This document shows, piece after piece, positions 15,984 to 50,484 of a DNA stretch of 64,000 bases. The notes under the pieces are model-generated. The model worked only from the letters and a program-made list of their open reading frames with translations. It searched no databases and was not told where the DNA came from. Source of the stretch: Deltaproteobacteria bacterium HGW-Deltaproteobacteria-14 (GTDB lineage: Bacteria > Myxococcota_A > UBA9042 > PHBI01); assembly GCA_002841945.1 (NCBI GenBank), contig PHBI01000012.1:4169-68168 (forward strand). The letters are read 5' to 3'. The position numbers and the translations under genes were made by a program. The first letter of the stretch is position 1. The number at the start of each line of letters is the position of its first letter.

Positions 15984-18686
15984 CTACTCCACAGCTGGGA
16001 TCAAGACCGGGCCGACGTCATCCATGATGAGCGGGTCGGTCGCGTCGCCGCCTCCCATCCCGTAGGGGCCGCCGTCGGGCGAGAGCGGGCGGTAGATGTT
16101 GTCGATGCCGTCGAAGTCCCAGGTGGTCGCGTAGACGCTGACCCCCTCCCAGGTGTCGAGGGCGAAGCGGGCGCCGTCGTACTCGAAGGTGATGGTGTTG
16201 GTCGGCAGATCGACGGTGACCGCGGGGCGCCCGGGGACGCCGCCGCCCCAGGCGGTCTCGGAGGCGCCGGTGATGTTGTAGACCGTGTTCGACCAGCCGA
16301 AGATGAAGTGCGTGAAGTCCCAGGCGAAGCCCTCGGGGGCGGTGCCGTTGATCTTGGGCAGCAGCGTCAGGCCGTCGCGTCCCGGGACATCGAGGTAGAT
16401 CGTGAAGGCGACGTGATCGAAGCCGTTCGATGGGTTCCAGGTGGTGCTCGTCGCGGCCATCGTGAAGCGCAGGCGCAGGGTGGCGCCGCCGGCCTCGATG
16501 ACGAGGCGCGTGACGTCCATGGTGGCGTCGCCCGCGAAGGACGCGTCCTGGGGGTAGGTGTAGGTGCCCGTCGGGCCGTTGTCGTCGTCGAGCGGGTCCT
16601 CGATGGTCAGGATCTGCCCGTCGAAGACGGTCGAGGACGTGAAGGCGTAGCGCGGTGACGCCACGCCGGCGGCCTGGGCGTAGAAGGACACCGTGTGGGG
16701 CGTGTCGCCGTATGGGAAGGAGTCGATCGGGAGGCTCGCGGTGAAGGTGCCGTCCGTGGCGACGACCACGGGGGTCGGCGCGACGAGCTTGTCGTCGATC
16801 ACCATGACGAGCGCAGTGTCGGCGGGGGTCACGCTGCCGGTGACGTCGGTGTTCGCGGTGAACGTCTCGCCGGCGATGGGCGTGTCGACGGTGATGGCGA
16901 CCTCTCCCGGGCCGATCGTGTCCACCTCGTCGGTCGCGAGCAGGACGATGGAGGCGCGCGCCGGCAGCTCGGTCAGCAGGCGCCCGCCGAGGCCGACCCG
17001 CGTCACCGGCTCGTCGACGCCGACCTTCACGATGGCGTCGAGGTGCGTGCCCGCGGCGACGCCGGTCGCCAGGTCGTTGACGAGGATCGGGTGCTCCGAG
17101 GTGTTCATCAGGACGATGGCGGCGTCGGCGTCCGTCGCGCGGCGGAAGGCGAAGACGCCAGGGCCGAAGGGGGCGTCCTGGAGCACGGTGAGGTCGCCGC
17201 GGGTCAGCACTGGGTGGCCCGTGCGGGCGGCGACGAGGGCCTCGAGGAAGGTGTAGGGGGCGCTCGTGGTGTCGAAGTGGTCCACGTCGCCAGCGCCCCA
17301 GCCGTCCGCGAACAGCGACGCTCGGGTCTCGGTGAATGCCTGCTCGGTGCCCTGGTAGATGACCGGGATCCCGGGGATGGTCATCAGCAGCACCAGGGCC
17401 TGGCGGAAGGCCGGCTCGCTGGCGCCGGCGAGGAAGCGCTGGACGTCGTGGTTGTCGATGAAGTTCGGGGTCAGCCCAGGCTCGGGGAAGCGGCTCGGGT
17501 CGTTGGCGAGCCCGAGGCGGTAGCTGAGCTGGGCCGTCGGGTCGCCGCCGCCGATGACGCGCTTGATCTCCTCGTAGAGCGGGAAGGCGAGGACCGCGCC
17601 GAGCTCGGGGGCGGCGGGGGTGCCGAGGTAGCTCGCGCACTTCCGCTCGCCGGCGTCGTCGAAGGGGTCGGAGACCTCGTAGACCTCGCCGAAGGTCAGG
17701 AGGTGGTCACGACCGGTGGCGGCGGCGACCGCGTTCATTCCCGGGGTCGTCGCGTCGGTCCCGTGCAGGAAGTCGTTCCAGAAGGCGTGGTCGACGAACT
17801 TGACGGTGTCGATGCGGAAGCCGTCCACGCCGACCGCCTCGATCCAGTAGCCGTAGCTGTCCCGGAGCGCCTCGCGCACGACGGGGTTGTCGGTGTTCAG
17901 GTCGTCGAGATCGCTGATCTCCCAGGTCTTCTCCTGCACCGGGTCGGTGAAGTCGCCGATGGTCGGGGTCCAGTGGTAGATGGCCGCGGCGAAGTCGGCG
18001 GGGTCGGTCGCGTCGTTCTGGTCGAAGGGCGGCTGGGTCGGGGCGGCGCTCGGCAGCGAGCCGGTGTTCTTGGTGAAGCCGGCGGTCGGATCCTCGGGGT
18101 CGTAGGTGCCGGTCCAGGTGAAGAAGTTCCCGGTGTGATTCGGCACGATGTCTTGGATGAGATACATGCCGCGGCGGTGCAGCGCGTCCGACAGCGCCTG
18201 GTACGTGGCGAGGGTGCCGTAGTGCTCGTCCACGGCCTTGAAGTCGCGGCCCCAGTAGCCGTGGTAGCCGCTGAACTGGGCGAGCGGGTCCCACCACTGG
18301 TTGGCGACGGGGGGCGTGATCCAGACGGCGGTGGCGCCGAGGCCCTGGATGTAGTCGAGGTGATCGATGACGCCTTGCAGATCGCCGCCGCTATAGTGGG
18401 CGTTCGAGGTCGGGTCGTACTCGCCCGCGCCCTGGTCGTCGTTGCTCGGATCGCCGTCGGCGAAGCGGTCGAGCATGACGAAGTAGATGACCTGGTCGCG
18501 CCACTGAGGCGACGGGACGTGGAGCAGCGGCCCGGCGTCGACGGTGTCCTCCGCGGTGTCCGCGGTGTCCGCGGTGTCCGCGGTGTCCGCGGTGTCGGCG
18601 ACGGCCGTGTCGGTGGCGGGCTTGGTGTCCCCGCCGCAGGCCGCGACGAGAGTGAGGGTGGTGAGCCAAGTGGTCACTGCGCGCAT
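15984..18686 (-). CDS. GH13 alpha-amylase-family lipoprotein with a C-terminal glucodextranase-C-like domain.
   Basis: 900 aa. Lipobox LVAACGGD followed by a DTADTADTADTADTAE linker. GH13 regions DQVIYFVMLDRFADGDPSNDD, GYHGYWGRDF and GVDGFRIDTVKF. C-terminal motif IEDPLDDDNGPTGTYTYPQD resembles the Glucodextran_C domain. RBS GGGGGAGG before the ATG. Confidence 0.9.
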   Translation of the reverse strand: MRAVTTWLTTLTLVAACGGDTKPATDTAVADTADTADTADTADTAEDTVDAGPLLHVPSPQWRDQVIYFVMLDRFADGDPSNDDQGAGEYDPTSNAHYSGGDLQGVIDHLDYIQGLGATAVWITPPVANQWWDPLAQFSGYHGYWGRDFKAVDEHYGTLATYQALSDALHRRGMYLIQDIVPNHTGNFFTWTGTYDPEDPTAGFTKNTGSLPSAAPTQPPFDQNDATDPADFAAAIYHWTPTIGDFTDPVQEKTWEISDLDDLNTDNPVVREALRDSYGYWIEAVGVDGFRIDTVKFVDHAFWNDFLHGTDATTPGMNAVAAATGRDHLLTFGEVYEVSDPFDDAGERKCASYLGTPAAPELGAVLAFPLYEEIKRVIGGGDPTAQLSYRLGLANDPSRFPEPGLTPNFIDNHDVQRFLAGASEPAFRQALVLLMTIPGIPVIYQGTEQAFTETRASLFADGWGAGDVDHFDTTSAPYTFLEALVAARTGHPVLTRGDLTVLQDAPFGPGVFAFRRATDADAAIVLMNTSEHPILVNDLATGVAAGTHLDAIVKVGVDEPVTRVGLGGRLLTELPARASIVLLATDEVDTIGPGEVAITVDTPIAGETFTANTDVTGSVTPADTALVMVIDDKLVAPTPVVVATDGTFTASLPIDSFPYGDTPHTVSFYAQAAGVASPRYAFTSSTVFDGQILTIEDPLDDDNGPTGTYTYPQDASFAGDATMDVTRLVIEAGGATLRLRFTMAATSTTWNPSNGFDHVAFTIYLDVPGRDGLTLLPKINGTAPEGFAWDFTHFIFGWSNTVYNITGASETAWGGGVPGRPAVTVDLPTNTITFEYDGARFALDTWEGVSVYATTWDFDGIDNIYRPLSPDGGPYGMGGGDATDPLIMDDVGPVLIPAVE
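18541..18585 (-). repeat. Coding microsatellite of four 9-bp tandem units (GCGGTGTCC) encoding (DTA)n in the linker of the alpha-amylase lipoprotein.
   Basis: gcggtgtcc repeated four times, then a degenerate fifth copy (gcggtgtcg). On the minus strand it translates to DTADTADTADTA. Confidence 0.8.
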
Positions 18687-18739
18687 GAGGCCTCCCCCGT
18701 TCGAGTCGGCGCCATTCTATCGCCGTCGTGGGGGCGTCG

Positions 18740-19957
18740 CTACAGCTCTTGAACGGTCGCCGTCGGCTGCTCGCCTCGCAGGCGGGCGCGGAGGTCCGCG
18801 AGGGCGACCTCGTGGCCGACGTCACGGTGGGCGGCCTCCGACATGTACCATTTGTGCTCGAGGAGCTGGCAGTAGAGCTCGGCGGGCTCGTCGCGGGCGG
18901 CGTCGTCGCGGAGGGCGGCGACGGTGGGGGAGAAGCGGGTCTCGAGCCAGCGGTAGGCGGCGGCGCCGAGGCTGACGCTGCGATCCTTGGCGCCGGCGAT
19001 GGTGGCTCGGATCTGCTGGATCTCGTTGACCATCTGCTGAGCCTGGAGCTCCTGGACCTCGAGGCCGGTGAGCGAGTGGAGCAGGCGCCTGTTGAAGCTG
19101 CGGTCGGTGACCACGACCCGCAGACGGAGCCGTTGGCGATCGCTCGCGGAGCGGGTCAGGGCGACCTCGCCGACGCTGAACCCCAGGGCGTTCAGCGCCC
19201 GGACCCGCTCGGTGATGCGGTAGTGCTCCTCGGGGCCGAGCTCGTCGATGCGGCTGACCTCGTGCCACAGGCCGTCGTAGCGACGGCGGATGTCGGCGGC
19301 TAGCTCGAGGGCTGGGTAGTCCTCGGGCAGCGCCCCCATGGCGACCAGGTCGAGCAGACCGCCGGCGACGTTCTCCTCCATGAGATCGAGGTCCGCGTCG
19401 CGGGTGGTGGCGTCGAGGGTGTCGCGGATGAGCGACGTCTCCGCGTCGACGAGGACCGCCTGCAGCGTCCCGGCGTCGCGGAGAAAGAGCGTGTTGAAGA
19501 GCGAGCAGTCGCCCCAGTAGACCCCGGCGAGGTGGAGCTGCACGAGGAGGCCGGCCATCGCGTCGAGGAGGTGATCGCGGTAGCGGCTGAGCGAGCTCTG
19601 CAGAAAGAGCGAGTGGTAGGGCAGGGAGTAGCTCAGGTAGCGGGTGACGAGCACGCTGCCGTCGCCTTCGTCGGTGGTCACGGTGACGTGGCCGACCGGC
19701 GCCACGACCGGGAGCTGGCGCTCCTCCATCTCGCGCAGGAGCTGGAATTCGTGCTCGGCCTGACCCGGGGGCATGGCCTTGAGCGCGTAGGCGCGGCCGT
19801 CGTAGTCGACGAAGACGACCGGGTGGCGGGCCTCGCCGCGGGGCAGGTCCTCGACGCGTGCGCACTCGCCCGCCCACGCGCCCAGCGGCAGGTGCCAGGG
19901 GAGGTCGAGGAAGTCGGGGTGACCGGGGCGGAGGTGTGAAGACTGGAGGCCGTTCAT
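18740..19957 (-). CDS. Protein-kinase-like-fold protein of the DUF4032/Kdo-RIO-like atypical kinase type.
   Basis: The long track ORF is trimmed to ATG 19957 (MNGLQSS...). Beta-strand with Lys VVFVDYDGRAYALK. Catalytic-loop-like HLAGVYWGDCSLFN (D-x4-N). The motif VLVDAETS is DFG-like. Confidence 0.65.
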   Translation of the reverse strand: MNGLQSSHLRPGHPDFLDLPWHLPLGAWAGECARVEDLPRGEARHPVVFVDYDGRAYALKAMPPGQAEHEFQLLREMEERQLPVVAPVGHVTVTTDEGDGSVLVTRYLSYSLPYHSLFLQSSLSRYRDHLLDAMAGLLVQLHLAGVYWGDCSLFNTLFLRDAGTLQAVLVDAETSLIRDTLDATTRDADLDLMEENVAGGLLDLVAMGALPEDYPALELAADIRRRYDGLWHEVSRIDELGPEEHYRITERVRALNALGFSVGEVALTRSASDRQRLRLRVVVTDRSFNRRLLHSLTGLEVQELQAQQMVNEIQQIRATIAGAKDRSVSLGAAAYRWLETRFSPTVAALRDDAARDEPAELYCQLLEHKWYMSEAAHRDVGHEVALADLRARLRGEQPTATVQEL

Positions 19958-19965
19958 GGCGGCAA

Positions 19966-19989
19966 GAGTAACTCCGAACCGAGTTACTC
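19966..19989. promoter_or_regulatory. Palindromic candidate operator GAGTAACTC-N6-GAGTTACTC immediately upstream of the kinase-like gene.
   Basis: Perfect 9-bp inverted repeat with a 6-bp spacer, 9-32 nt upstream of ATG 19957. It has the same GTAACT-N8-AGTTAC architecture as the site at 56332..56353. Confidence 0.45.
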
Positions 19990-20155: not shown

Positions 20156-20163
20156 GAAGTCTG

Positions 20164-21939
20164 CTAGGGCGCGGTGATGAACGTGTTCTTGTCACCGTCG
20201 GTCTGGGACTCGACGGTCACGGAGGCCCAATCACCGGCGGCCGGCTTGACGTAGGCGGCGACGCCGGTGGCGTCCGCGGCCCCGTCGGCCTTGTACTCGA
20301 CGGCGTCGAGCACGAACACGAACTGGGGCTGCTGGCCGCTGGACAGCAGGCCGTCGTGCTTGCCGGTGTTCTCCGACAGCACGAAGGTCCAGATGCCGTC
20401 GGCGGCCGTCACGTCGCCCTTGGTGCCGTCATCGGTCATGGTGACCTCGCCCCAGGCCCACGCGCTGCCCTTGACCTTGAAGCTCGTGCTGCCCGCGAAC
20501 AGCGACGAGACGTTCGCCGCGTCGATGGTCAGGCGCATGTCGATCTCGCCAAAGGCCCCGATGGTCAGGCCCTGGGCGTCGATCGCGGTGGTGGCGCCCG
20601 CCGTGACCGTGAAGGCGCCGTTGCCGCCAACCCAGATCCAGTCGCCCGCCGCCGGGGCGACGTAGTTGCGCACGAGGCCGTAGCCGAACTCCTGCTCGGC
20701 CGCGTTCGAGACCCACACCGTGACGCCCCAGATGTGGTCGCCAGCGACGGAGCCGGCCGGCTCGTGGCCGCCCGCGTCCCAGGCGCCGTCATCGTAGAGC
20801 GGGACGTACGGCCCACCCCACGAGTTGTCGAAGGCGAGGACGCGGGTGGTCTCGTCGTAGTTGAACGAGCCCTTCCACGCCATGGCGTCGCTGGCCTCGT
20901 AGGTCTGGTTAGCCGAGTCGTCGACCTTGAAGTTGACGGCGACGGTGTCGGCCGGCGGGACGAACGCCGCGGCGGCGACCTTCACGTAGGTGTTCTTGTC
21001 ACCGTCGGGGTAGTTCTGGATCGCGGCCGGCTGGAAGCCCGCGCCGGTGTTGAGGAAGGCGTTGACGCCGTCGGTCGGAGGCGCGCCGTCGACCTTGTAC
21101 TCGACGCCGTCGAGCACGAAGACGAAGGGCGCCTCGGCGCCGGAGACGAGGAGGCCCGTGTGCTTGGTCAGGTTCTCCGAGAGCACGAAGGTGTAGATCT
21201 CGTCGCCCGCGGTGTCGTCGCCCTTGGTGGCGTCGTCGGTCATCTCGACCTCGACCCAACCCCAGGCGCCGCCCTTGACCTTGACGGTGGTGTACGAGCC
21301 GGTGCCGAGGTCGAAGGCGCCGCCGAGGTTCGCGCCGCTGTCGCTGACGTCGATCGTGAGCTTGAGGTCGGTCGTGCCGAAGGCGGGGATGACGAGGCCG
21401 GTCGCGGTCACGGTGCCGGTCTCGCCGGCGGTGATCGTGACGCTGCCGTTGGTGCCCTGCCAGATCCACTGGCCGTCCGAGCCGTCCACGGAGCCGCTGA
21501 TGGCGCCGTAGCCGAACTCCTGGTCGGCCTCGGGGGTCGCGAAGAGGATGCCGCAGGTCCAGATGTGGTCCCCGGCGGTCGCGTCGCCGTGGGTGCCGTC
21601 ATCGTAGAGCATCGGGAAGGGGCCGCCCCAGCTGTTGTCGAACGCGACGATGTTGGTCGCCGCGTCGTAGGCGAAGGAGCCCTTCCAGGCGAGGCCGTCG
21701 GTCGCGTCGTAGGTGCCGTTGGCGCTGTCGTCGATGGTGAAGACGAGCGTGGCGTAGTCGCTCGTCACGTTCGTGTCGGTCTCGACGTTGGTGTCCGCGG
21801 AGGTGTCGCCACCGGTGTCGCTCGTGACGGTGTCGGTCGTCGACGTGTCAGTCGCGGGCTTCGGGTCGTCGCCACACGCTGCGAAGAGCGTCATGGCTCC
21901 CGCGGCGAGCAGCAGAGTGATGGAGTTGAAAAGACGCAT
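20164..21939 (-). CDS. Non-catalytic lipoprotein with two tandem CBM20-like (starch-binding-like) beta-sandwich modules.
   Basis: Start trimmed to ATG 21939 with RBS GGAGGA. Signal MRLFNSITLLLAAGAMTLFAACGDDPKPATDT (lipobox plus D/T linker). Internal duplication of about 250 aa: DDSANGTYDATDGLAWKGSFAYD...DDGTHGDATAGDHIWT repeats as DDSANQTYEASDAMAWKGSFNYD...AGSVAGDHIWG. No catalytic motifs. Confidence 0.8.
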   Translation of the reverse strand: MRLFNSITLLLAAGAMTLFAACGDDPKPATDTSTTDTVTSDTGGDTSADTNVETDTNVTSDYATLVFTIDDSANGTYDATDGLAWKGSFAYDAATNIVAFDNSWGGPFPMLYDDGTHGDATAGDHIWTCGILFATPEADQEFGYGAISGSVDGSDGQWIWQGTNGSVTITAGETGTVTATGLVIPAFGTTDLKLTIDVSDSGANLGGAFDLGTGSYTTVKVKGGAWGWVEVEMTDDATKGDDTAGDEIYTFVLSENLTKHTGLLVSGAEAPFVFVLDGVEYKVDGAPPTDGVNAFLNTGAGFQPAAIQNYPDGDKNTYVKVAAAAFVPPADTVAVNFKVDDSANQTYEASDAMAWKGSFNYDETTRVLAFDNSWGGPYVPLYDDGAWDAGGHEPAGSVAGDHIWGVTVWVSNAAEQEFGYGLVRNYVAPAAGDWIWVGGNGAFTVTAGATTAIDAQGLTIGAFGEIDMRLTIDAANVSSLFAGSTSFKVKGSAWAWGEVTMTDDGTKGDVTAADGIWTFVLSENTGKHDGLLSSGQQPQFVFVLDAVEYKADGAADATGVAAYVKPAAGDWASVTVESQTDGDKNTFITAP

Positions 21940-22260: not shown

Positions 22261-23248
22261 TCAGTTCTGATCGCCGCCGGGTGAGGTGGGAGCGATCGGG
22301 ATCGTCGCGGTCACCGGGATCACCGCCGACGCGCCCTGGCTCGCTTCGCCAGCGGTCAGGCGCAGAGACGCCGCGTCACCGGCCACGCTCAGCACCGTGG
22401 CGGTCCCGATCGCCACCCCGGCGGCGTCCACGACGGTGACGAGCTGGCCGGCGGCGAGCTCGCCGTCACGGACCGGGGACGCGGTCAGCAGCGCCCCCTG
22501 GGCGAAGGCGACCGGGATCCCGGTCGGCCGCGGCCGATCACCGCTCGGGTAGGCGAGGGGGACCGGTCGGGCGGGGACCACCTCCTCGGTCGCGTCGAGC
22601 ACGGGCGGGCCGGCGCCGACGAGGTGGCAGCGCGCGTCGTCCCAGACGTGACAGTCTCCGCCCGACGGGGCCACCTGGCGCACGCGCCCCTCACCGGTCG
22701 TCGACGTGGCCATCACCGCGACCAACACCCCGGCGATGTGCGGCGGGATGTCGCGGGCGTGAAACGACGCGCGGAGCGTGTGCCCGCTGCTGACGACGTG
22801 GGTGGGGCGGAGGACGTCGCCGCCGTCGTTGTCGCGGAGCGACGAGATCACCAGCACCCAGTCCCAGGCCTCGGCGGCAGGGACGTCGAAGCCGCGGCCC
22901 GGGAGCGCCGCGATATGCCCCGCGCCGGGCACCGAGTCGAGGTAGACGTCGACCGTCTGCGGCCAGAGATCCACCGCCAGGTCCTCGGCGAGTCGGACGT
23001 CGCGGAGCCTGCGCACCGGCGCGGCGAAGGTCACCTCGGCGACCACCTCGTCGCCCTCGCGCCACAGGGTGAAGCGCTCGAGGTCGAATGTGCCGGCGCG
23101 AATATCCGCCGCGTCGGGGTGGACGAGCCGCACGTCCCCCTCGGGGTCCGCGAGGTCCACCAGGACGGTGCGCGGTTGCGTCGCGCAGGCAGAGGTCCAG
23201 AGAGTACCCAGCAGGCACGTAAATATAGCGCGCCATACAATGCTGCAA
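22261..23248 (-). CDS. Putative lipoprotein with a glucodextranase-C-like domain. Start uncertain.
   Basis: Continuous protein-like ORF. Probable TTG/GTG start near 23248 gives (M)RCSIVWRAIFTCLLGTLWTSACA. The region DLADPEGDVRLVHPDAADIRAGTFDLERFTLW resembles the DPxGDDxGPGxYTYP...FDL motif seen in 26741..27571 and at the C-terminus of the 15984 amylase. Confidence 0.55.
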
Positions 23249-23303
23249 CGCAACGCGCGCGGGGCAGTGAGGCCTCGCGCGCGCGGCTGGCGGGGGGCGC
23301 CGA

Positions 23304-26734: not shown

Positions 26735-26740
26735 GATGTG

Positions 26741-27571
26741 TCAGCCTTCGGGGTAGACCATCTGCAGGACGGCGCGGGTCCCGCTGCCGTCGGGGTTGCA
26801 CTTGAAGGTGCCGAGCATCTTGTGCTGAGCGTCCTTTTCGGACTTGTCGCCCTGGGCCTTGCCGGCGATGAGATCCATGACGTGCGGGTCGCAGTCGTAG
26901 TCGGAGCCGCCGCCGAAGCGGTGCTGGCCGCCGAACTCGTTGACCTTGCGGGTCAGGAGATCGGTCTTGTCGGGGAAGCCCTCGTTCGACTGCATCAGCA
27001 CCTGGAAGCCCCACTGCTTGGAGAGGTCGGCGCCGAGGTCCTTCTTGGCGAAGCGGGCGACGAGCTTGCGGCCGCGCACGCTCACCGTCGTCGGGATGAG
27101 GATGTCCTTCTTCATCGCCGCGGCCTTGGCGGAGACCTCGGCCTGCACCCGGGTGCGCCCCTGGGGGCTGATGACGAGCGCCTTGTCCCAGCGCTGGTCG
27201 TCGGCGAAGGTGACGTTGAAGCCGGGCAGCCCGTCCTTGTAGCCGCTGCCGGCCTTGTGGTCGGTGTCGATGTGGATGACGATCATCTGGAGCGAGAAGC
27301 CGTTGCCGTCCCAGGCCCGGGAGTCCCACGGGTCGTCGATCTTGGCCTTGACGGTGACCGAGACCTCGACGGTGTCGCCCTTGTCGGCGATCTCGACGTC
27401 GGTCAGGTCGAAGGAGCCGGGGGTGTACACGGCGTCGGTCGGGTAGGTGTACTGCCCGGGGCCGTCATCGTCGCCCTTGGGGTCCTCGAAAGAGATCGTC
27501 TCGCCAGCGAGCGCGAGCCCGCCGTACATGACCATGACCAGTGTCAGGGAACCGGTGATGAGCTTCTTCAC
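26741..27571 (-). CDS. Secreted protein with a glucodextranase-C-like (Glucodextran_C-like) domain.
   Basis: Signal MKKLITGSLTLVMVMYGGLALAGE. Motif EDPKGDDDGPGQYTYPTDAVYTPGSFDLTDVEI, which recurs in the 15984 amylase C-terminus and in the 22261 gene. First gene of a minus-strand operon. Confidence 0.75.
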   Translation of the reverse strand: MKKLITGSLTLVMVMYGGLALAGETISFEDPKGDDDGPGQYTYPTDAVYTPGSFDLTDVEIADKGDTVEVSVTVKAKIDDPWDSRAWDGNGFSLQMIVIHIDTDHKAGSGYKDGLPGFNVTFADDQRWDKALVISPQGRTRVQAEVSAKAAAMKKDILIPTTVSVRGRKLVARFAKKDLGADLSKQWGFQVLMQSNEGFPDKTDLLTRKVNEFGGQHRFGGGSDYDCDPHVMDLIAGKAQGDKSEKDAQHKMLGTFKCNPDGSGTRAVLQMVYPEG

Positions 27572-27659: not shown

Positions 27660-27745
27660 GGACGCGTTACCGTAACGCGGCCCTCTGCGAAACGCCACAG
27701 GAACGTGAATCATGCCTGCGTTACGCCGGGCTGTAACTCACGTTT
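27660..27745. promoter_or_regulatory. Divergent promoter region with GTTAC/GTAAC palindromes, candidate operator(s).
   Basis: GCGTTAC-C-GTAACGC (7-bp arms) near 27665-27680. A second pair GCGTTAC-gccgggct-GTAACTC at about 27715-27740. TCATGCGC is directly repeated twice. Lies between the divergent starts at 27571(-) and 27828(+). Confidence 0.4.
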
Positions 27746-27827: not shown

Positions 27828-29636
<1,809 letters not shown>

Positions 29637-36520: not shown

Positions 36521-36524
36521 CAGC

Positions 36525-40094
<3,570 letters not shown>

Positions 40095-40246: not shown

Positions 40247-42913
40247 ATGCGCTCGTCTCTCGTCGCCGTGTGCCCGCTCGTCCTCCTCCTCGTCGCGGCC
40301 GGCTGCGGTGACGACACGGTCGCGTCCCCTGACGGGGCCGGCGGCGACACGACCGTCACCTCGGACACCGCCATGGAGGAGGGCGACGGGGCGGTGGCCA
40401 CCGACACCCACGACGTGCTGGTGACGACCTGCCTCGCCCCCGAGGGCGCCGACCCGAGCGGGACCGATGTGCTGACCGACGACCTCGGCGAGGCCACCGT
40501 CAACGTCGCCGATCGCGACGCCTGCCACCGCACCTACACCCTGACCTCGACCGCGACCCGCCGCGACGACCTGCCGGCGTCTCCGCGGTCGGTCGTCGAG
40601 GAGGCGGGCTACCCGACCCTGCGCAGCGGCAACGACCTGCTCGACGCCCTGCACGCCCTCGCGCTCGCCGAGGCGCGCGAGAACATGGTCGACACCATCA
40701 CCGACGGCGCCTTCTCGCAGGGCGGCGCGACCTCCTGCGGCGACGGCGGCTGCTTCGAGACCGGGCGCAAGTGGACTTATGTCTGGACCCGCGACACCGC
40801 CTTCGCGGTCGATCTCGGGCTGGCCGCCGTCGATCCCGCCCGGGCGGCGAACTCGCTCCGCTTCAAGCTCTCCGCGCGGCGCTCGGGCGGCGACGTGCAG
40901 ATCGTGCAGGACACGGGCTCGGGCGGGAGCTACCCGGTCTCGAGCGATCGCGTCGCCTGGGCGCTCGGCGCCTGGACGCTGCTGCAGCAGCTCGACGGCG
41001 CGGCGCGCACGAGCTTCGGCGACGACGCCCGGGCGGCGATCACGAACACCCTCGAGCACGATCGCGCCGTCGTCTTCGACGTGGCGACCGGCCTCTACCG
41101 CGGCGAGACGTCGTTTCTCGACTGGCGCCAGCAGACCTACCCCGGCTGGACCGAGCTCGACGTCACCGACATCGCCACCAGCGCCGCGCTGAGCACCAAC
41201 GTGCTGCACCTGCGCGCCCTCGAGATCGCCGCCGCGCTGCACGCCGAGGCCGGCGACGACACCGCCGCCGCCCGCTACAGCGGCTGGGCGGACGCCCTGC
41301 GGACGGCCATCCACGACCGCCTCTGGGTCGAGTCCGACGGGCTCTTCGCGAGCTTCCTGCCCAGCACCCTCGATCCGGCGCCGGTCCACCGCTACGACCT
41401 GCTCGGCGAGGCCCTCGCGGTGCTCGCCGGCGTCGCCAGCCCCGACGAGGCGCGCCGCGTCCTCGCCGCCTACCCGAGCTACGGCCCCGGGACGCCGGTC
41501 ATCTGGCCGCAGCAGCAGAACATCTCCATCTATCACAACCGCGCCGAGTGGCCCTTCGTCGACGCCTACTGGCTGCGCGCCGCCGCGGTCGCCAAGAGCG
41601 ACGGCGTCGCCGACAAGATGGTGGCCGCGCTCGTGCGCGGCGCGGCGCTCAACCTGTCGAACATGGAGAACCTCGAGGCCTGGACCGGCGCCCCCTACGT
41701 CGAGGACGGGCTCTACTCGGGGCCGGTCGTGAACTCCCAGCGCCAGCTGTGGTCGGTCGGCGCCTTCCTCTCCATGGTGCACCGCACGCTGTTTGGCCTC
41801 GAGCCGACCCCGGAGGGCCTGAAGATCGCGCCCTACGTCACCCACGGCATGCGGCGGACGTGGTTCGCGGGCAGCGACGAGCTAGTGCTCAACGACTTCG
41901 CCTACCGCGGGCGCCGGGTGACCGTGGTGGTGAGCCTGCCGCCGCCGTCTGGGGCGTCGGCCGGCGGCTCGTACCGCGTTGCACAGGTGCGCCTCGACGG
42001 GCAGCTCGTCACCGAGCCGGTGATCGCGCCCGCGCGCCTCGCCGTGTCGAACCGGGTCGACGTCGCCCTCGAGGAGGACCCCGAGGCGGTCCCCACGACC
42101 GCGCGGGAGGTCGACGGGGCCGCCTGGCAGCAGGTCTTCGGGCCGCGGACCCCGCAGCTCAAGAGCGTCAGCGCCGTCGGCGACCGGCTCTCCCTCGAGC
42201 TCGGCCTCGGCGGCGAGGACCCGGCCGGGCTCCTGCTCCACGTCTATCGGGACGGCGTGCCGGTCGCGAGCGGGCTCCCCGCGACGACCAGCAGCTGGAC
42301 CGATCCCGACTCCGATCCAGCGGCGCCGACCTCGCCGTGCTACGCGGTCGAGGCGTCGTTCACCGCCAGCGGCAACCGCTCGCAGCACTCCCGCCCCGTC
42401 TGCTGGTGGGGGAGCTCCAACGCCGCGATCCAGACCGTCGACGCCGGGGCCTTCGAGGCGGTCGGGGGCGAGGCCGTCACGCAGTACGGGCGCTTCCACT
42501 ACCAGGAGTGGGGTGACGAGGGGGACACGCTGACGGCGCGCGGCTTGCACCCCGCGCGCACCGGGCCGGCGTGGCTCCAGGTGCGCTTCGGCAACGGCGC
42601 TGGGCCGATCAACACCGGCATCACCTGCGCGGTGAAGCGGGTGACGGTGTTCGACGAGGCGAGCGGCGACGAGGTGGGGGGCGGCGTGCTGGTGATGCCG
42701 CAGCTCGGCACCTGGGAGCGGTGGTCCTTGTCGACCTTCGTGCCGGTGACCCTGGACGCGGCGAAGAGCTACCGCGTCGTCATCTCCGGCGACGCGCGGA
42801 CGGTGAACATGTCGTTCTTCTCGCACTTCGCGCACTACAACGGCGGGACCGGCGGCAGCGACGGCCCGTTCGACCGCGTGAACATCGCCGAGCTGCGGAT
42901 CCTGGCCCGCTGA
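40247..42913 (+). CDS. (alpha/alpha)6-barrel glycoside hydrolase lipoprotein, GH15/GH63-like (glucoamylase / glucodextranase / debranching type), with a C-terminal beta-sandwich carbohydrate-binding-like domain.
   Basis: Lipobox LLLVAAGCGDD. KWTYVWTRDTAFAVDL resembles the GH15 YTWTRDS region. 888 aa. The C-terminal approximately 200 aa (...VTVFDEASGDEVGGGVLVMPQLGTWERWS...) look like a CBM-like beta-sandwich. Confidence 0.7.
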   Translation: MRSSLVAVCPLVLLLVAAGCGDDTVASPDGAGGDTTVTSDTAMEEGDGAVATDTHDVLVTTCLAPEGADPSGTDVLTDDLGEATVNVADRDACHRTYTLTSTATRRDDLPASPRSVVEEAGYPTLRSGNDLLDALHALALAEARENMVDTITDGAFSQGGATSCGDGGCFETGRKWTYVWTRDTAFAVDLGLAAVDPARAANSLRFKLSARRSGGDVQIVQDTGSGGSYPVSSDRVAWALGAWTLLQQLDGAARTSFGDDARAAITNTLEHDRAVVFDVATGLYRGETSFLDWRQQTYPGWTELDVTDIATSAALSTNVLHLRALEIAAALHAEAGDDTAAARYSGWADALRTAIHDRLWVESDGLFASFLPSTLDPAPVHRYDLLGEALAVLAGVASPDEARRVLAAYPSYGPGTPVIWPQQQNISIYHNRAEWPFVDAYWLRAAAVAKSDGVADKMVAALVRGAALNLSNMENLEAWTGAPYVEDGLYSGPVVNSQRQLWSVGAFLSMVHRTLFGLEPTPEGLKIAPYVTHGMRRTWFAGSDELVLNDFAYRGRRVTVVVSLPPPSGASAGGSYRVAQVRLDGQLVTEPVIAPARLAVSNRVDVALEEDPEAVPTTAREVDGAAWQQVFGPRTPQLKSVSAVGDRLSLELGLGGEDPAGLLLHVYRDGVPVASGLPATTSSWTDPDSDPAAPTSPCYAVEASFTASGNRSQHSRPVCWWGSSNAAIQTVDAGAFEAVGGEAVTQYGRFHYQEWGDEGDTLTARGLHPARTGPAWLQVRFGNGAGPINTGITCAVKRVTVFDEASGDEVGGGVLVMPQLGTWERWSLSTFVPVTLDAAKSYRVVISGDARTVNMSFFSHFAHYNGGTGGSDGPFDRVNIAELRILAR

Positions 42914-42988
42914 AGTCCCGCGAGCGCGGTCTCGGCGTTGCGTCGAACGGCCTCGCCGTGGACCATGGTGACGGACCCCAGCACGAGG

Positions 42989-45900
42989 ATGGCCATGCTC
43001 CGTCACGCGTCTATCGCGAGCCTCGCCGGTTTCGCGGCTATCGCGCTCCTTCTCAGCTGGGCGCCGCTCGCGCACGCCGAGGGGGTGTCGTGGACCGTGG
43101 ACTTCACCGGGGACGCCGTGGCGCCCGGCTGGACGACCACCCTCACCGGCGGCGCCCGGATCGCCCACGAGCGCGCCGAGGCGCGCGAGGTCGACCAAGG
43201 AGTCCGGCTCTCGCGCACCCTGCCGTCACCGATGGAGCGCATCGAGGTCCGCTTCGTCGGTGAGCTCCGCGACGCCGCACGCGGCTCGTCGCTCGCCCTC
43301 GTCTTGGCCGGCGCCGCTGGCGCGATTCGCCTCGATCATCAGCACGGGGGCGACGTCGCCCCGGGCCAGAGCGTCGTGCGGGTGACGCTCCCCGAGGCGG
43401 CCGGGCCCGTCGACACACCGTCGGACACCCACGCCGAGCGCTTCCCGAGCTACCTCCACGAGGTCGTGTTGAGCGGCCGCGCGCTGACGGTGACCGTCAC
43501 GGACCTGCGGACCGGGGCGGTCGTGGCGTCGCTCGCGCGCGCCGACGTCGGCCTGCCGGCGAACGCCGTGAGCCTGATCGCGCTCGCGGTCGCGCACGTC
43601 GATGGCCCAGGCGCCACCTGGCTCGACGACGTCCACGTCGATCTCGCGCCGTCGCCCCTCGTCGCCGCCGTGTGTGGCCCGGACGACCCACCCACGAGCG
43701 CGGACTGCGACGGCGCGTGCGACGCCGTCGACCTCCCTGGGAGCCCCGACTGCGACGGGCTGTGCGGGGCCAACGACGACTTCGTCAGCCCGGACTGCGA
43801 TCCGCAGTGGTACTGCAACCACTTCCCGGGCGGGCCGTGCGACGACGGCGACCCGTGCACGACCGACGACAGCTGCCGGGCCGGGTCGCAGTGCAAGGGG
43901 GACCCGCGGGACTGCTCGGCGCTGACCGACCCGTGCAACGGCGCCGTGTGCGACGAGGACGCCGGCTACTGCAAGCGGGTGCCGATCAACATCGGCGCCG
44001 CCTGCGACGACCAGAACCCGTGCACCGTCGACGACCACTGCGACGCGACCGGGGCGTGCGCCAGCGACCCGAAGGACTGCTCGACCTTCGATGACATCTG
44101 CAACTCCGGCAGCTGCAACCACCTCGGGGTGTGCGAGACCGAGCCGATCAACGAGGGTGGCCCGTGCGACGACCACGATCCGTGCACCGTCGGCGACCTC
44201 TGCAACGCCGCCGGGGGCTGCGCCGGCGCCGCCGTGGACTGCTCGGGGCTCGATGACGCCTGCGTCGAGGGCTACTGCGACGCGGCGGGGAGCTGCCGGA
44301 CGACGCCGGTCAACGGCGGCGGCCCGTGCGACGACGGCGACCCGTGCACCCTGCTCGACGCCTGCGGCGCGGACGGCGTCTGCGCGGGCGGCGAGAAGGA
44401 TTGCTCGTCCCTCGACGACGCGTGCCACCTCGGCGCGTGCGACGACGGCGGGGCCTGCGGGGCGACGCCGGCCAACGCCGGCGGCGCGTGCGACGACGGC
44501 GATCCCTGTACGATCGGCGATCTGTGCGACGCCGCCGGCGGCTGCGCCGGGACGCCGGTCGACTGCTCGGGCCTCGATGGCGCGTGCAAGGTCGGGCAGT
44601 GCAACGCGAGCGGGGCGTGCGTCGCCGCGGCGGCCAACGTCGGCGGCGCGTGCGACGACGGTGACCCCTGCACCCTCGGCGACGCGTGCGGCAACGGCGG
44701 CGTGTGCGTCGGGGCCGGGATCGACTGCTCGGAGCTCGACGACCCGTGCCACGCCGGGACCTGCGACGGCGCGGGGGGCTGCGTCGCGCTGACCGCCAAC
44801 GCGGGGGGCGCGTGCGACGACCTCGACCCCTGCACCCGCGACGACGTGTGCGCAGCGGACGGCAGCTGCGCCGGCGTGGCCGATGACTGCGCCGAGCTCA
44901 CGACCGCGTGCAGCGTCGGCATGTGCGACGCGCAGGGCGGGTGCGTCGGGGTGCCCGCCAACCTCGGCGGCGGCTGCGACGACGGTGATCCGTGCACGGT
45001 CCTCGATGCCTGCGGCGCGGACGGCGGCTGCGCTGGGGTGGCCAAGGACTGTAGCGGCCTCGACGACGCGTGCCACGTCGGGACGTGTGACGCGAGCGGG
45101 GCCTGCGTGGCGGCGCCGGCGAACCTCGGCGCGACGTGCGACGACGGGGACGGGTGCACCGTGAACGACCGCTGCGGGGCAGGCGGCGGGTGCGCCGGGT
45201 CGCCGCGCGACTGCTCGGGGCTCGACGACACCTGCCACGAGGGGACCTGCGAGGCGGCCTCCGGGACCTGCGTCGCGACCCCGGCGCGGGTCGGCGGGGC
45301 GTGCTCGGACGCGGACCCGTGCACCGTCACCGACGTCTGCGGCGCGGACGGGGTGTGCGCGGGGAGCGCCATCGACTGCGCCGTCTCCGAGAGCCCGATC
45401 TGCAACCTCGCCGCGTGCAACCCCCTGCGCGACCTCGACGGCGACGGGGTCATCGACACCGCCGACGGCGATCCGCAGGATCCCACCGCGTGCGCCGACG
45501 CCGACGCGGACGGCTGCGACGACTGCGCGCTGACCGGGCCGGACGGCTCGGGTGGGGACGTCGCCCGGGACGGGCCGGACGCGGACGCCGACGGGGCCTG
45601 CGACGTCGGCGACGATGACGATGACGGCGACGGGATCGACGACGACGACGAGGCGGCTGCCGGCTCCGATCCGTACGACGCCGACACCGACGGGGACGGG
45701 CTCGCCGACGGGGACGAGGTCGCTGCGGGGACGAGCCCGGTCGATGTGGACAGCGACGACGACGGCCTGTCGGACTCCGACGAGCTCAGCGGCGGCGGGC
45801 GGCTCGCGCCCTGGGGCGCGACCGATCCGACCGATCCGGACAGCGACGGCGACGGGCTGCTCGACGGCCTCGAGGTGGGGGTGACGGCGCCGATCCCGGG

Positions 45901-46258
45901 GGGGCACCTGAGCGTCGGCCCGGCGCCGGTCGAGGCGCGCGGCACCGATCTCGACCGCGGCGTCTTCCGGGCCGACGCCGACCCGTCGTCGATCACCGAC
46001 CCGACCTCGGTCGACACCGACGGCGGCACCGTCCCCGACGGGATCGAGGACGTGAACCGCGACGGGGCCGTCGACCACGGCGAGCGCAACCCGGTGGACC
46101 CGACCGACGACGTCCCGGTGGTCACGACGCCGAAGGACGGCGGCGGGTGTGCAGGCGCAGGCGGGCAGGGCGCCGCGGGCGCGCTGGCGCTGGCGCTGCT
46201 GGCGCTCGCGGCGACGCGGAGGCGCCTGGCTCGCGTCCGCCGCTCGCGCTCCCGCTAG
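42989..46258 (+). CDS. Large cell-surface protein with about 11 myxococcal cysteine-rich repeats, thrombospondin-type-3-like Asp-rich calcium-binding repeats, and a MYXO-CTERM-like sorting tail.
   Basis: Signal MAMLRHASIASLAGFAAIALLLSWAPLAHA. The start is uncertain; 42938 and 42965 are alternatives. Repeats of the form DCSxLDDxCxxGxCDxxGxCxxxPxNxGGxCDDGDPCTxxDxCGxDGxCAG. Asp-rich segment DxDGDGxxDxxD. C-terminus GGGCAGAGGQGAAGALALALLALAATRRRLARVRRSRSR. Confidence 0.85.
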   Translation: MAMLRHASIASLAGFAAIALLLSWAPLAHAEGVSWTVDFTGDAVAPGWTTTLTGGARIAHERAEAREVDQGVRLSRTLPSPMERIEVRFVGELRDAARGSSLALVLAGAAGAIRLDHQHGGDVAPGQSVVRVTLPEAAGPVDTPSDTHAERFPSYLHEVVLSGRALTVTVTDLRTGAVVASLARADVGLPANAVSLIALAVAHVDGPGATWLDDVHVDLAPSPLVAAVCGPDDPPTSADCDGACDAVDLPGSPDCDGLCGANDDFVSPDCDPQWYCNHFPGGPCDDGDPCTTDDSCRAGSQCKGDPRDCSALTDPCNGAVCDEDAGYCKRVPINIGAACDDQNPCTVDDHCDATGACASDPKDCSTFDDICNSGSCNHLGVCETEPINEGGPCDDHDPCTVGDLCNAAGGCAGAAVDCSGLDDACVEGYCDAAGSCRTTPVNGGGPCDDGDPCTLLDACGADGVCAGGEKDCSSLDDACHLGACDDGGACGATPANAGGACDDGDPCTIGDLCDAAGGCAGTPVDCSGLDGACKVGQCNASGACVAAAANVGGACDDGDPCTLGDACGNGGVCVGAGIDCSELDDPCHAGTCDGAGGCVALTANAGGACDDLDPCTRDDVCAADGSCAGVADDCAELTTACSVGMCDAQGGCVGVPANLGGGCDDGDPCTVLDACGADGGCAGVAKDCSGLDDACHVGTCDASGACVAAPANLGATCDDGDGCTVNDRCGAGGGCAGSPRDCSGLDDTCHEGTCEAASGTCVATPARVGGACSDADPCTVTDVCGADGVCAGSAIDCAVSESPICNLAACNPLRDLDGDGVIDTADGDPQDPTACADADADGCDDCALTGPDGSGGDVARDGPDADADGACDVGDDDDDGDGIDDDDEAAAGSDPYDADTDGDGLADGDEVAAGTSPVDVDSDDDGLSDSDELSGGGRLAPWGATDPTDPDSDGDGLLDGLEVGVTAPIPGGHLSVGPAPVEARGTDLDRGVFRADADPSSITDPTSVDTDGGTVPDGIEDVNRDGAVDHGERNPVDPTDDVPVVTTPKDGGGCAGAGGQGAAGALALALLALAATRRRLARVRRSRSR
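43890..45420 (+). repeat. Tandem coding repeats of about 135 bp each, roughly 11 copies, encoding the cysteine-rich repeat units.
   Basis: Period of about 45 aa visible in the translation. Recurring DNA blocks such as gcgtgcgacgacggcgacccgtgcacc. Confidence 0.8.
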
Positions 46259-46260
46259 AC

Positions 46261-48060
46261 CTATCGCAGGGCGACGAAGGCGAAGCCCCGCGCCCCGAGG
46301 GGGGGCACGGTGATGGCGCCCGCGCGCGTGGCGAAGGGGCCGGTGACGCCCTCCGAGAACAAGAGCCTCGGGACGCCGGTCACCGGCGCGTCGAAGGCCT
46401 CGCTGGGCTCGCGGTCGAGGTTCACGACGACCAACACCCGCTCCCCGGCCGCCTCGCGGACGAAGGCCACGCTGCCCTTGCCGCCGGTGACCTCGAGCCG
46501 CCGCTGGGTCCCCCAGCGCAGCGCCGGGTGGGCGTGTCGCAGCGCAATAAGACGGCGGTAGAGGCTCAGCAGTGAGCCCTCGTCCTTGAGTTGCGATGCA
46601 ACATCGACGACGCCGGCCTCGTCCGGGACGGCGAACCACGGGGTGCCGGTCGTGAAGCCCACCCCCGGGGTCTCCTTGGTCCAGCGCATCGGCGTGCGCT
46701 TGTTCTCGTCCGCGCCGCTCTCGCCGCCCTGCATCCCGATCTCCTCGCCGTAGTACATGAAGGGCGTCCCCTCCCAGGCCATCAGCAGCGCCGCGGCGAG
46801 GCGCATCCCGGCGGCGTCCCCGTCGAGCTGCCGCATCACCCGGGGCATGTCGTGGTTGGTCAAAAACGGCGCCTCGAAGCCCGGATCCGCGGCGAAGACG
46901 GTGGCCGCCTTGTCGAGCATCTGGTTGAGGTCGGAGCGCACGCCGTCCTTCACCGCCGCGCGGATCTTGTCCGCGGTGTTGAAGGAGAAGCCGAGGTGAA
47001 ACTCGTCACCGTCGCCGTAGTAGAGCACCTGGTCCTCGGCGCCGCTCCACGCCTCGGCGACGATCACGGCGTCCGGGTGCTCGGCGTCGAGCACCTTGCG
47101 AAAGCGCTTCAAGAACGGGTGGTTACCCTCGAAGTCCGCGACCTTGCCCTCGGGCCCCTCGAAGAGGTGGCGCACGGCGTCGACCCGGAACCCGTCCTGC
47201 CCGCGGTCGAGCCAGAAGCGCGCCGCGTGCATCATCGCGTCCTCGACCTCGGAGTCGCCGAGGTTCAGGTCGGGCATCTCGCTCCAGAAGATCGCGTAGT
47301 AGTACCAGTCGCCGAGCTGGTGCCAGACGGGCGACCCGTCCCACGGTCGCTTCCACCCCTTGGGCGGCGTCTTGACCCAGCTGTAGAACGCGCGCTTGGC
47401 CGCGTCCGGGCCCGCCTTGGCGTCGAGGAACCACGGGTGCTGGCTCGAGCTGTGGTTGAGCACGAAGTCGGTGATGATCCGGATCCCGCGCTGATGCGCG
47501 GCGGCGATGAGCTTGTCGTAGGTGGCGAGGGTCCCGTAGTCGGGGTTGATCCCCTCGTAGTCCGTCACGTCGTAGCCGTGGTAGCTCGGCGACGGGTTGA
47601 TGGGCATCAGCCACAGCGCGTCCACGCCGAGGTCGTTGCCGCCGCTCGGGTCGCCGTCGTTGAGGTAGTCGAGCTTGTCGATGAGCCCCTGGAGGTCGCC
47701 CTTTCCGTCGCCGTCGGAGTCCGCGAAGCTGCGCACGAAGATCTCGTAGAACACCGCCCCGCGCCACCACGGTTGGGCCGGCGGCGCGGCGGTCGCGGTC
47801 GTGTCGGCCGGCTCGAGGGCGAGCGCCGCGTCCGCGACGGCCACGGCCGGCGTCGCCGCGTCGGCCTCCGGGGCGGGCGCGACGGTCTCGAGGGCGGGGG
47901 CCGCGGTCGCCTCGGGCGGCGGCGTCCGGACCGGCGGCTTGTCGCCTTCGCTCTTGCATGAAGAAGTGGCGAATAGGGTGGCGATGGCGAGTGCAGAAGC
48001 CGTTATTGCGCGATTCGCAACTGCGACATGGTCGCGCGTCGTGCCACGAGCAGCGTTCAT
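46261..48060 (-). CDS. GH13 alpha-amylase-family lipoprotein of the alpha-glucosidase / cyclomaltodextrinase / oligo-1,6-glucosidase type.
   Basis: Start trimmed to ATG 48060 with RBS GGAGGA. Signal ...AITASALAIATLFATSSC. GH13 regions WRGAVFYEIFVRSFADSDGDGKGDLQG, YHGYDVTDY, IRIITDFVLNHSS and GFRVDAVRHL. Its stop lies 2 bp from the stop of the convergent surface-protein gene. Confidence 0.85.
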   Translation of the reverse strand: MNAARGTTRDHVAVANRAITASALAIATLFATSSCKSEGDKPPVRTPPPEATAAPALETVAPAPEADAATPAVAVADAALALEPADTTATAAPPAQPWWRGAVFYEIFVRSFADSDGDGKGDLQGLIDKLDYLNDGDPSGGNDLGVDALWLMPINPSPSYHGYDVTDYEGINPDYGTLATYDKLIAAAHQRGIRIITDFVLNHSSSQHPWFLDAKAGPDAAKRAFYSWVKTPPKGWKRPWDGSPVWHQLGDWYYYAIFWSEMPDLNLGDSEVEDAMMHAARFWLDRGQDGFRVDAVRHLFEGPEGKVADFEGNHPFLKRFRKVLDAEHPDAVIVAEAWSGAEDQVLYYGDGDEFHLGFSFNTADKIRAAVKDGVRSDLNQMLDKAATVFAADPGFEAPFLTNHDMPRVMRQLDGDAAGMRLAAALLMAWEGTPFMYYGEEIGMQGGESGADENKRTPMRWTKETPGVGFTTGTPWFAVPDEAGVVDVASQLKDEGSLLSLYRRLIALRHAHPALRWGTQRRLEVTGGKGSVAFVREAAGERVLVVVNLDREPSEAFDAPVTGVPRLLFSEGVTGPFATRAGAITVPPLGARGFAFVALR

Positions 48061-50480: not shown

Positions 50481-50484
50481 GGCG

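Follow-up and report, generated by a model that had tools for sequence, protein, structure and literature searches.

Enzymes and importer of the locus

The 64,000-nucleotide stretch analyzed here (the window; positions 4,169 to 68,168 of contig PHBI01000012.1 of Deltaproteobacteria bacterium HGW-Deltaproteobacteria-14) carries a cluster of genes for α-glucan-degrading enzymes, together with the genes of an outer-membrane (OM) β-barrel, several lipoproteins and a MalEFGK-type ABC importer (Table 1). We consider it very likely that the cluster encodes an exported, lipid-anchored α-glucan catabolic system linked to MalEFGK. Since the high GC content of the window (~71%) fills mechanical lists of open reading frames with false frames, genes were called by third-position GC, and their starts were picked by signal-peptide context. 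Enzymes were identified by Pfam, NCBIfam and PDB sequence searches, which found the three GH13 enzymes (GH13a, GH13b and GH13c), the GH57 enzyme and the pullulanase where the original prediction, made from the sequence alone, had placed them, with the catalytic motifs of the GH13 and GH57 enzymes intact.

GH13a matches Pfam Alpha-amylase (7.6e-54) and Glucodextran_C (1.7e-19); its nearest solved chain is the α-amylase 43wj/9x8f (598 bits), and its C-terminal part is covered by 9x81. The best models for GH13b are PRK09505 (MalS-like; 609 bits, under the equivalog cut-off of 790), and GH13c matches Pfam Alpha-amylase (1.9e-94) and DUF3459, with AmyA 1wza as the best PDB match (346 bits) and SusG also matched. 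Conserved regions I, II (nucleophile Asp) and IV (NHD) of GH13 are intact in all three enzymes. The nearest solved chains of the GH57 enzyme are those of the 8ZYI set, a GH57 amylopullulanase (PMC12106739), and the motifs HQP, WPSEGS (nucleophile Glu) and DGEN/DGENAW (acid/base Asp) were found. By sequence, this enzyme is of the amylopullulanase type and not a branching enzyme, its specificity being predicted. The pullulanase scores 1202 bits against TIGR02103 (cut-off 697.6) and has the full PulA architecture in Pfam (two PUD domains, Pullulanase_N2, CBM48, Pullulanase_Ins and Pullul_strch_C). All five of these assignable enzymes belong to α-glucan-active families. The possibility that the set consists of biosynthetic GH13 or GH57 enzymes, which would have overturned the prediction, was addressed with the NCBIfam models of GlgB, GlgX, TreY, TreZ and TreS, for which all enzymes fall far under the cut-offs; together with the signal peptide on every enzyme, this supports a catabolic, exported α-glucan set as predicted from sequence.

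The sixth enzyme, originally described as GH15/GH63-like, kept its (α/α)6-like character and lost that family assignment. Its Pfam matches are sub-threshold only (MGH1-like and Bac_rhamnosid6H), its homologs carry PF22422, PF06202 (GDE_C) and PF17389, and its family profile finds weakly matching GH94, GH37 and GH78 chains in the PDB (E 1e-5 to 1e-2), where a search with the single sequence found no match. The product is probably an (α/α)6 glycosidase of an unassigned CAZy family.

The importer genes conform to the MalEFGK2 type, with an OB/TOBE domain in MalK, two BPD_transp_1 permeases and a cluster-B binding protein. The best NCBIfam model for the binding protein is MalE (137.6 bits, under the equivalog cut-off of 291), and we thus regard it as MalE-like, with a predicted substrate range. 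The coupling of the enzymes to MalEFGK, which the original prediction had proposed, is seen here and in many related loci; the importer genes lie at 51088-56135, beyond the range to which that prediction referred. An Rfam scan of the window gave no match.

Table 1 Features of the α-glucan locus in the window (coordinates in window numbering; ↓, predicted cleavage site).
Feature	Position	Strand	Description
GH13a	15984-18686	-	900 aa; lipoprotein α-amylase with C-terminal Glucodextran_C
DUF4032 and Kdo/WaaP-like kinase domain protein	18740-19960	-	Pfam; no signal peptide
LP592	20164-21939	-	591-aa lipoprotein; Trp-rich C-terminal module
GdxC2	22261-23253	-	Lipoprotein paralog of GdxC1; start codon uncertain
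LP505	23304-24821	-	Lipoprotein; CBM20-like domain predicted at ~residues 270-430
OM β-barrel	24818-26734	-	638 aa; signal peptidase I (SPase I) signal AHA↓ETK
GdxC1	26741-27571	-	SPase I-secreted, non-lipidated stand-alone Glucodextran_C protein
GH13b	27828-29636	+	MalS-like α-amylase; divergent from GdxC1 operon
GH57	29695-33132	+	1145-aa lipoprotein; Big_5, GH57 and C-terminal CBM20
DUF4185a	33500-34534	-	Passes lipobox rule
OM protein-like gene	34521-35441	-	306 aa; SPase I signal; high third-position GC
DUF4185b	35438-36520	-	Fails strict lipobox rule
PulA-type pullulanase	36525-40094	-	1189-aa lipoprotein; LVGC↓GDDPKP
(α/α)6 protein	40247-42913	+	888-aa lipoprotein; sub-threshold family matches
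TSP3/CglD-like protein	42938-46258	+	1106 aa, secreted
GH13c	46261-48060	-	Lipoprotein, α-amylase/α-glucosidase-like; Lys at +2
LP529	48210-49799	+	Lipoprotein; Asp/Thr linker; lipobox LALAGC
Two small genes	49851-51066	-	One encodes the 209-aa protein (49851-50480)
MalG	51088-51951	-	BPD_transp_1
MalF	51948-53630	-	BPD_transp_1
MalE	53642-55021	-	SBP_bac_1 lipoprotein; lipobox LTAGC
MalK	55014-56135	-	ABC_tran, OB_MalK and TOBE_2
CotH-family lipoprotein	56425-57957	-	Directly upstream of malK
GTAAC/GTTAC-type sites	19968-19987, 27662-27678, 27720-27737, 56333-56352		

The outer-membrane barrel and its partner proteins

Translational coupling joins the genes of GdxC1, the barrel and LP505 into a trio, with a 6-nt gap between GdxC1 and the barrel and a 4-nt overlap of the barrel stop with the LP505 start, and this trio is the best-conserved unit of the locus. 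The AlphaFold2 model of the barrel (pLDDT 78.6, pTM 0.80) has ~22 strands, and the C-terminal residue of the protein is Trp. In the model, strand 1 begins five residues past the signal peptidase cleavage site; because the mature protein thus opens directly with strand 1, it has neither a plug nor a TonB box. An identity as a TonB-dependent transporter (TBDT) or SusC was rejected, as neither Pfam Plug nor TonB_dep_Rec was matched and the model contains no plug; TBDT structures align to the protein through their barrel parts only. The test for membership of the 18-strand LamB maltoporins was likewise negative.

No Pfam or NCBIfam family covers the barrel. There are 681 detectable homologs, and the 120 matches listed range from ~49 to 95% identity; those with names among them are all called 'hypothetical' and come from metagenome-assembled genomes (MAGs) of Myxococcota or 'Deltaproteobacteria'. 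Identical copies of the protein occur on metagenome contigs (ENA ERZ27239242 and JGI 3300038334). When 1.84 billion cluster representatives were searched exhaustively with a profile, only 222 barrel clusters were returned, many consisting of fragments, and none of the matches was a distant relative; the family is, as judged by these sequence searches, isolated. The long connections of the barrel all lie on one face, which is extracellular by the usual topology rule for OM proteins; the conserved long loops span residues 45-66, 96-127, 152-173, 197-221, 371-420 and 446-494. Conservation in the family is highest in these segments, which is unusual for an exposed porin. This suggests that the conserved loops may fold into the lumen or be covered by partner proteins.

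The candidate partners are LP505, the Glucodextran_C proteins and LP592. LP505 is a lipoprotein in most of its 62 orthologs, with a conserved mature start C-G-L/I-E/D, and is modeled confidently as mainly a β-sandwich with a short helical region; the best structural matches of the model are CBM20 starch-binding domains. Sub-threshold Pfam CBM_20 matches were found in six of 51 family members. By eye, we take the motifs LLGNW, IWTFALVLP, YKYT and EEWPGNQR to line up with the site-1 and site-2 residues of CBM20 in the starch-binding domain of Aspergillus niger glucoamylase. LP505 would thus carry a CBM20-like starch-binding domain, with binding predicted from the model.

GdxC1 matches Pfam Glucodextran_C (2.8e-54) and residues 779-879 of glucodextranase 1ug9, and it adjoins the barrel in nearly all related loci. 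GdxC2 matches the same family less strongly (2.6e-09), is 26% identical to GdxC1 and has orthologs with clear lipoboxes (...GAC↓AS). The third paralogous copy in the locus, the C-terminal domain of GH13a, shares 27% identity with GdxC1 and could plausibly link the enzyme to the OM module by docking or through a common ligand. LP592 has a 'Choice-of-anchor X' motif and a conserved Trp-rich C-terminal module of ~265 aa, and gave no Pfam or PDB match, also by profile search; orthologs of 300-350 aa sit after LP505 in Anaeromyxobacteraceae-type loci. By its sequence features it is a candidate glycan-binding surface protein. No locus protein matches the Pfam families of SusD.

Conservation, lipidation and neighboring genes

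For comparison we assembled 80 related loci (one genome per species, all MAGs), to which the window proteins were mapped by tblastn; counts of flanking genes in the clade of the window and in the most distant clade refer to loci of at least 15 kb. All but a few of the 80 loci contain the trio. In the clade of the window (barrel at least 60% identical), α-glucan enzymes flank the trio in seven of nine loci. In the most distant clade, made up of MAGs of Anaeromyxobacteraceae and 'Myxococcaceae' with barrels below 48% identity, 20 of 21 loci have enzymes next to the trio and 16 have MalEFG; the usual order is pullulanase - GH13c - GdxC1 - barrel - LP505 - LP592 core - GdxC-like - MalGFEK within ~22 kb. 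The window holds an enlarged and reordered version of a conserved type of locus and is not unique in its density. The original description of the locus as exceptionally dense is accordingly true in a relative sense only, with Anaeromyxobacteraceae-type MAGs holding the same gene set in 22 kb or less. In the individual loci L082, L083 and L084, which belong to the clade with barrels at 48-59% identity, the trio stands by itself in housekeeping surroundings; its neighbors in L082 include EutN/CcmL microcompartment genes, PilZ genes occur in L082 and L083, and the upstream Glucodextran_C gene is absent from L084.

The synteny, which had been proposed as a check by comparative genomics, bears on whether unrelated secreted hydrolases have come together here by chance or as a mosaic, their lipidation reflecting the lipoprotein-rich secretomes of myxobacteria. 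Such a reading could appeal to gene order, which differs between clades, and to the genes without evident α-glucan role that interrupt the locus (DUF4032/kinase, the two DUF4185 genes, the 306-aa OM protein-like gene and the TSP3/CglD-like gene) or adjoin it (CotH). It is largely refuted by the recurrence of the same gene set in dozens of loci, including lineages at 41-47% barrel identity, by the lipoboxes kept in the orthologs of every enzyme, and by the α-glucan activity common to all five assignable enzyme families, and we regard it as very improbable.

Lipoboxes were tested with a regular expression of the PROSITE PS51257-style rule, which asks for a positively charged n-region, an uncharged h-region and the lipobox Cys at position 15-35. 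Five of the six enzymes passed (GH13a VAAC, GH57 FAAC, pullulanase LVGC, (α/α)6 protein AAGC and GH13c TSSC), as did LP592, LP505, GdxC2, LP529, MalE, the CotH lipoprotein and DUF4185a; the strict rule was failed by GH13b (GAPAC↓GDGG) and DUF4185b. The prediction that all six enzymes have an LxxC lipobox thus holds loosely and not literally, with the APAC of GH13b as the exception. The closest orthologs of GH13b have APGC (L017, 80% identity) and a canonical LAAC (L002, 70% identity). Lipoboxes recur in the orthologs of every enzyme down to ~40% identity, in lineages whose barrels are 41-47% identical, and are present in 14 of 16 pullulanase orthologs, the other two being matches without the N-terminus. 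Because it is kept across distant Myxococcota lineages, lipidation is a conserved design feature and not chance.

Downstream of the lipidated Cys, two classes of linkers were found. Seven locus proteins (GH13a, GH13b, GH57, the pullulanase, the (α/α)6 protein, LP592 and LP529) continue after C-G-(D/G/S)-(D/G) with acidic linkers, which consist of 30-45 residues of Asp/Thr repeats (Asp/Thr/Gly in GH13b) with a net charge of -6 to -12, and the neighboring CotH lipoprotein has the same C-G-D-D start and Asp/Thr linker. GH13c (~65 aa, Lys at +2) and MalE have Pro/Ala-rich linkers. The N-termini of LP592 (LFAAC↓GDDPKPATDT), LP505 (LLAGC↓GLD) and GH13c (FATSSC↓K) illustrate the range. Lys at +2 is an inner-membrane retention signal for lipoproteins in Myxococcus xanthus (PMC3222651), and disordered N-terminal linkers are reported to be typical of OM-targeted lipoproteins of Escherichia coli (10.1101/2021.01.05.425367). 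The two linker classes suggest two compartments, and we infer, from sequence features, that the depolymerases and binding proteins would go to the OM or cell surface, and GH13c and MalE to the periplasm on the inner membrane. For the latter two this assignment rests on the linker classes, the Lys at +2 of GH13c and the site at which MalE must work; GH13c is probably periplasmic and anchored in the inner membrane. Of the cell-surface-tethered system that had been proposed, membrane anchoring thus stands, and the enzymes probably do not all lie on the surface.

Whether the enzymes on Asp/Thr linkers are exposed at the surface is a closer question, and we put the likelihood slightly short of even. 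A lipobox indicates membrane anchoring and is by itself no proof of exposure, and no type II secretion system (T2SS) or other surface-display genes lie within the window. The C-G-D-D/Asp-Thr motif was considered as a conserved surface-export signal, comparable to the lipoprotein export signal of Bacteroidota, and rejected, as distant orthologs use C-S-S-S or C-G-S-S; from these alignments the motif reads as a clade-specific acidic disordered linker. The last two points would suit enzymes that are periplasm-facing lipoproteins or packed into OM vesicles and are not displayed, their anchor only preventing enzyme loss. Breakdown of polymer would then fall to released vesicles or to lysate, or processing would be limited to oligosaccharides and periplasmic glucans. 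Such an arrangement also agrees with default Lol sorting, which leaves lipoproteins in the inner OM leaflet, and with the M. xanthus OM lipoproteins, which have no recognizable sorting motif (PMC3222651). However, starch, pullulan and glycogen cannot cross the OM, so at least one endo-enzyme must act outside; a PulA-type pullulanase is reported to be surface-exposed in Klebsiella (PMC12802150); and polymer-binding modules of the CBM20 and CBM41 type on lipoproteins make most sense at the surface. We consider the periplasm-facing arrangement unlikely. About 4 kb upstream of the locus, at 7640-11820 (+), lies a MacB/Lol-type ABC system with a LolD-like ATPase and two FtsX-family permeases (695 and 435 aa); all LolCDE models score under their cut-offs, and we do not call it a lipoprotein-release system.

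Several neighboring genes are less closely tied to the locus type. LP529 has no Pfam or NCBIfam match, and its orthologs adjoin MalG or GH13c in L050 and L053. The cytoplasmic DUF4032/kinase protein is an odd passenger within an otherwise exported-protein operon, and its position between LP592 and GH13a is conserved only in the closest relative, L017. Downstream of the pullulanase follow DUF4185b, the 306-aa gene and DUF4185a, with gaps or overlaps of at most 14 nt. DUF4185 has recently been described as a family of endo-D-arabinanases (GH183), and the 306-aa protein may, by sequence, be a small OM protein. Because orthologs of these three genes are absent from the 80 related loci, they look like a lineage-specific insertion in the pullulanase operon. 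The TSP3/CglD-like protein, encoded between the (α/α)6 gene and GH13c, has bacterial TSP3 repeats and a weak similarity to the gliding-motility lipoprotein CglD. The 209-aa protein lacks a signal peptide and matches nothing in Pfam, NCBIfam or the PDB; it is 68-70% identical in the distant loci L053 and L074, against ~45-50% for the neighboring enzymes, and may serve the system as a conserved component of the cytoplasm or as a regulator. In L001, a 209-aa gene adjoins a MalT-like regulator (AAA_16 and TPR_MalT), and homology of its product to the 209-aa protein of the window was not detected.

A possible regulatory sequence is provided by GTAAC and GTTAC pentamers, which are rare (19 in 64 kb, 13 of them intergenic). 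The arrangement GTAAC-N10-GTTAC precedes both malK and the DUF4032/GH13a genes. The region between the divergent GdxC1 and GH13b genes contains the perfect palindrome CGCGTTAC-C-GTAACGCG. The exact pattern is not present in 1.29 Mb of related loci, with only fragments recurring in the closest relatives, L017 and L004. These sites are a possible operator of some regulator.

Proposed α-glucan utilization system and comparison with known systems

We propose, with somewhat more confidence than doubt, that the locus represents a conserved Myxococcota type of Sus-like but TonB-independent system for α-glucan (starch, glycogen and pullulan), organized in three layers. In the first, GH13a, GH13b, GH57 and the pullulanase would cut the polymer at or near the OM on their acidic Asp/Thr linkers. 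In the second, the barrel, LP505, GdxC1, GdxC2, the C-terminal domain of GH13a and LP592 would capture α-glucan chains. Binding at the surface would be provided by LP505, the CBM20 of GH57, the CBM41 and CBM48 of the pullulanase and perhaps LP592, and the bound α-glucan would be cut by the tethered endo- and debranching enzymes. The oligosaccharides would diffuse through the plug-less barrel to the periplasm without TonB energy. In the third layer, GH13c would trim them in the periplasm, and the lipoprotein MalE would bind them for import via MalFGK2. We infer both that maltooligosaccharides pass through the barrel and that it is complexed with LP505 and GdxC1, and we give even odds to uptake proceeding through this module. 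More tentatively, the trio, LP592 and GdxC2 might be a new, Myxococcota-specific and TonB-independent OM machine for glycan capture and translocation, an analogue of SusCD built from unrelated parts, in which LP505 and the Glucodextran_C proteins would cap the barrel loops, and enzymes such as GH13a would dock by means of a Glucodextran_C domain of their own.

In addition to the points on surface exposure given above, several observations weigh against this proposal. Several of the highly conserved barrel loops are modeled with low confidence. The LP505 of the window does not match Pfam CBM_20 (PF00686), and an hhalign comparison with a single sequence, taken as the A. niger glucoamylase starch-binding domain, aligned no more than 24 columns. 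The (α/α)6 protein, whose gene is co-located in one related locus only (L002), could not be tied to α-glucans, nor could several of the interspersed genes. Finally, in the middle clade (barrel 48-59%), the trio lies mostly among housekeeping genes, with enzymes near it in three of 15 loci and MalEFG in none of 15, so that it may have a more general role; the CBM20-like partner LP505 is retained in this clade.

The last observation leads to the possibility that the trio is a general OM structural, porin or exporter complex of Myxococcota, such as an envelope tether or an exporter or anchor of an α-glucan-containing exopolymer, which is merely linked to mal genes in some lineages. Besides its housekeeping surroundings in the middle clade, this would fit the Pfam description of Glucodextran_C as an 'SLH-like' binding module, which could mean envelope anchoring, and the very high conservation of the barrel, which one would expect of core envelope machinery rather than of nutrient porins. 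Yet the trio is tightly and repeatedly linked to GH13, GH57, pullulanase and MalEFGK genes at both ends of the family diversity, the partner lipoprotein has a CBM20-like fold in its model, and genes for glycosyltransferases or polymerases are absent around the trio in the loci inspected. We judge a general envelope role to be improbable, slightly more so than periplasm-facing enzymes, and keep to the three-layered α-glucan system as the preferred interpretation.

The view of the locus as a myxobacterial counterpart of a polysaccharide utilization locus (PUL) emerged better supported than originally claimed, owing to the conserved barrel and the CBM20-like lipoprotein among what had been termed accessory binding proteins. 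The locus can be regarded as a PUL. Its ABC importer and its pullulanase are typical representatives of known families, and the set of barrel, CBM20-type lipoprotein and Glucodextran_C proteins could be categorically new machinery. PULs with surface lipoproteins and a dedicated OM transporter are treated as a hallmark of Bacteroidota, and proteobacterial systems use TBDTs or simple porins. In the literature we found no earlier account of this type of locus, nor any of the PDB entries 9x8f and 9x81; lipoproteins and clustering are not topics of the Sandaracinus amylolyticus genome paper. A 2026 review of bacterial glycoside transporters names TBDT/SusCD and porins as the only OM routes and does not mention Myxococcota (PMC13543919). 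If the proposed system is real, 'selfish' cell-attached capture of polymer would have evolved independently with different hardware, and a barrel family of several hundred members, now annotated only as hypothetical, would gain a function. It would offer uncultured Myxococcota of soil and sediment a possible route to harvest starch or the glycogen of prey, and natural lipid-anchored, linker-bearing amylolytic enzymes may be of biotechnological use.

Compared with SusCDEFG of Bacteroides thetaiotaomicron and the PULs of Bacteroidota, the locus has in common one or more lipoprotein amylases and starch-binding lipoproteins beside a 22-strand OM barrel, further glycosidases that act after uptake, and the logic of binding, cutting, importing and finishing. 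In contrast to Sus, the barrel lacks both plug and TonB box; a SusD-like tetratricopeptide repeat protein is absent, its place being taken by the CBM20-type lipoprotein and the Glucodextran_C proteins; and import across the inner membrane is by the ABC transporter MalEFGK and not by a major facilitator superfamily permease, with no SusR-type regulator here. With the enterobacterial maltose system and Klebsiella PulA, the locus shares homologs of MalK, MalE, MalF and MalG, a MalS-like GH13 enzyme and a lipoprotein pullulanase of the PulA type. It differs from them in that there is no LamB homolog, its place in the OM being taken by a far larger barrel from an isolated family that has partner proteins of its own, in that the MalS-like enzyme and MalE are lipidated whereas they are soluble in E. 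coli, in that pul-type T2SS genes are not found in the window, and in the additional GH13 and GH57 lipoproteins.

The TonB-dependent loci for maltodextrin and glycan uptake in Proteobacteria, such as the MalA locus of Caulobacter and the carbohydrate-utilization (CUT) loci of Xanthomonas, are Gram-negative clusters outside Bacteroidota that likewise combine an OM transporter, glycosidases and an inner-membrane transporter. Their OM transporters are canonical TBDTs with a plug and a TonB box, both of which were tested for and are absent in the barrel described here. The PULs of Gram-positive bacteria resemble the locus in having an ABC importer with a lipoprotein binding protein and multi-modular, cell-attached GH13 enzymes and pullulanases with CBM20, CBM41 and CBM48; unlike them, the diderm cell envelope here requires an OM step, and the enzymes are attached by N-terminal lipidation, not by sortase or S-layer homology (SLH) domains.

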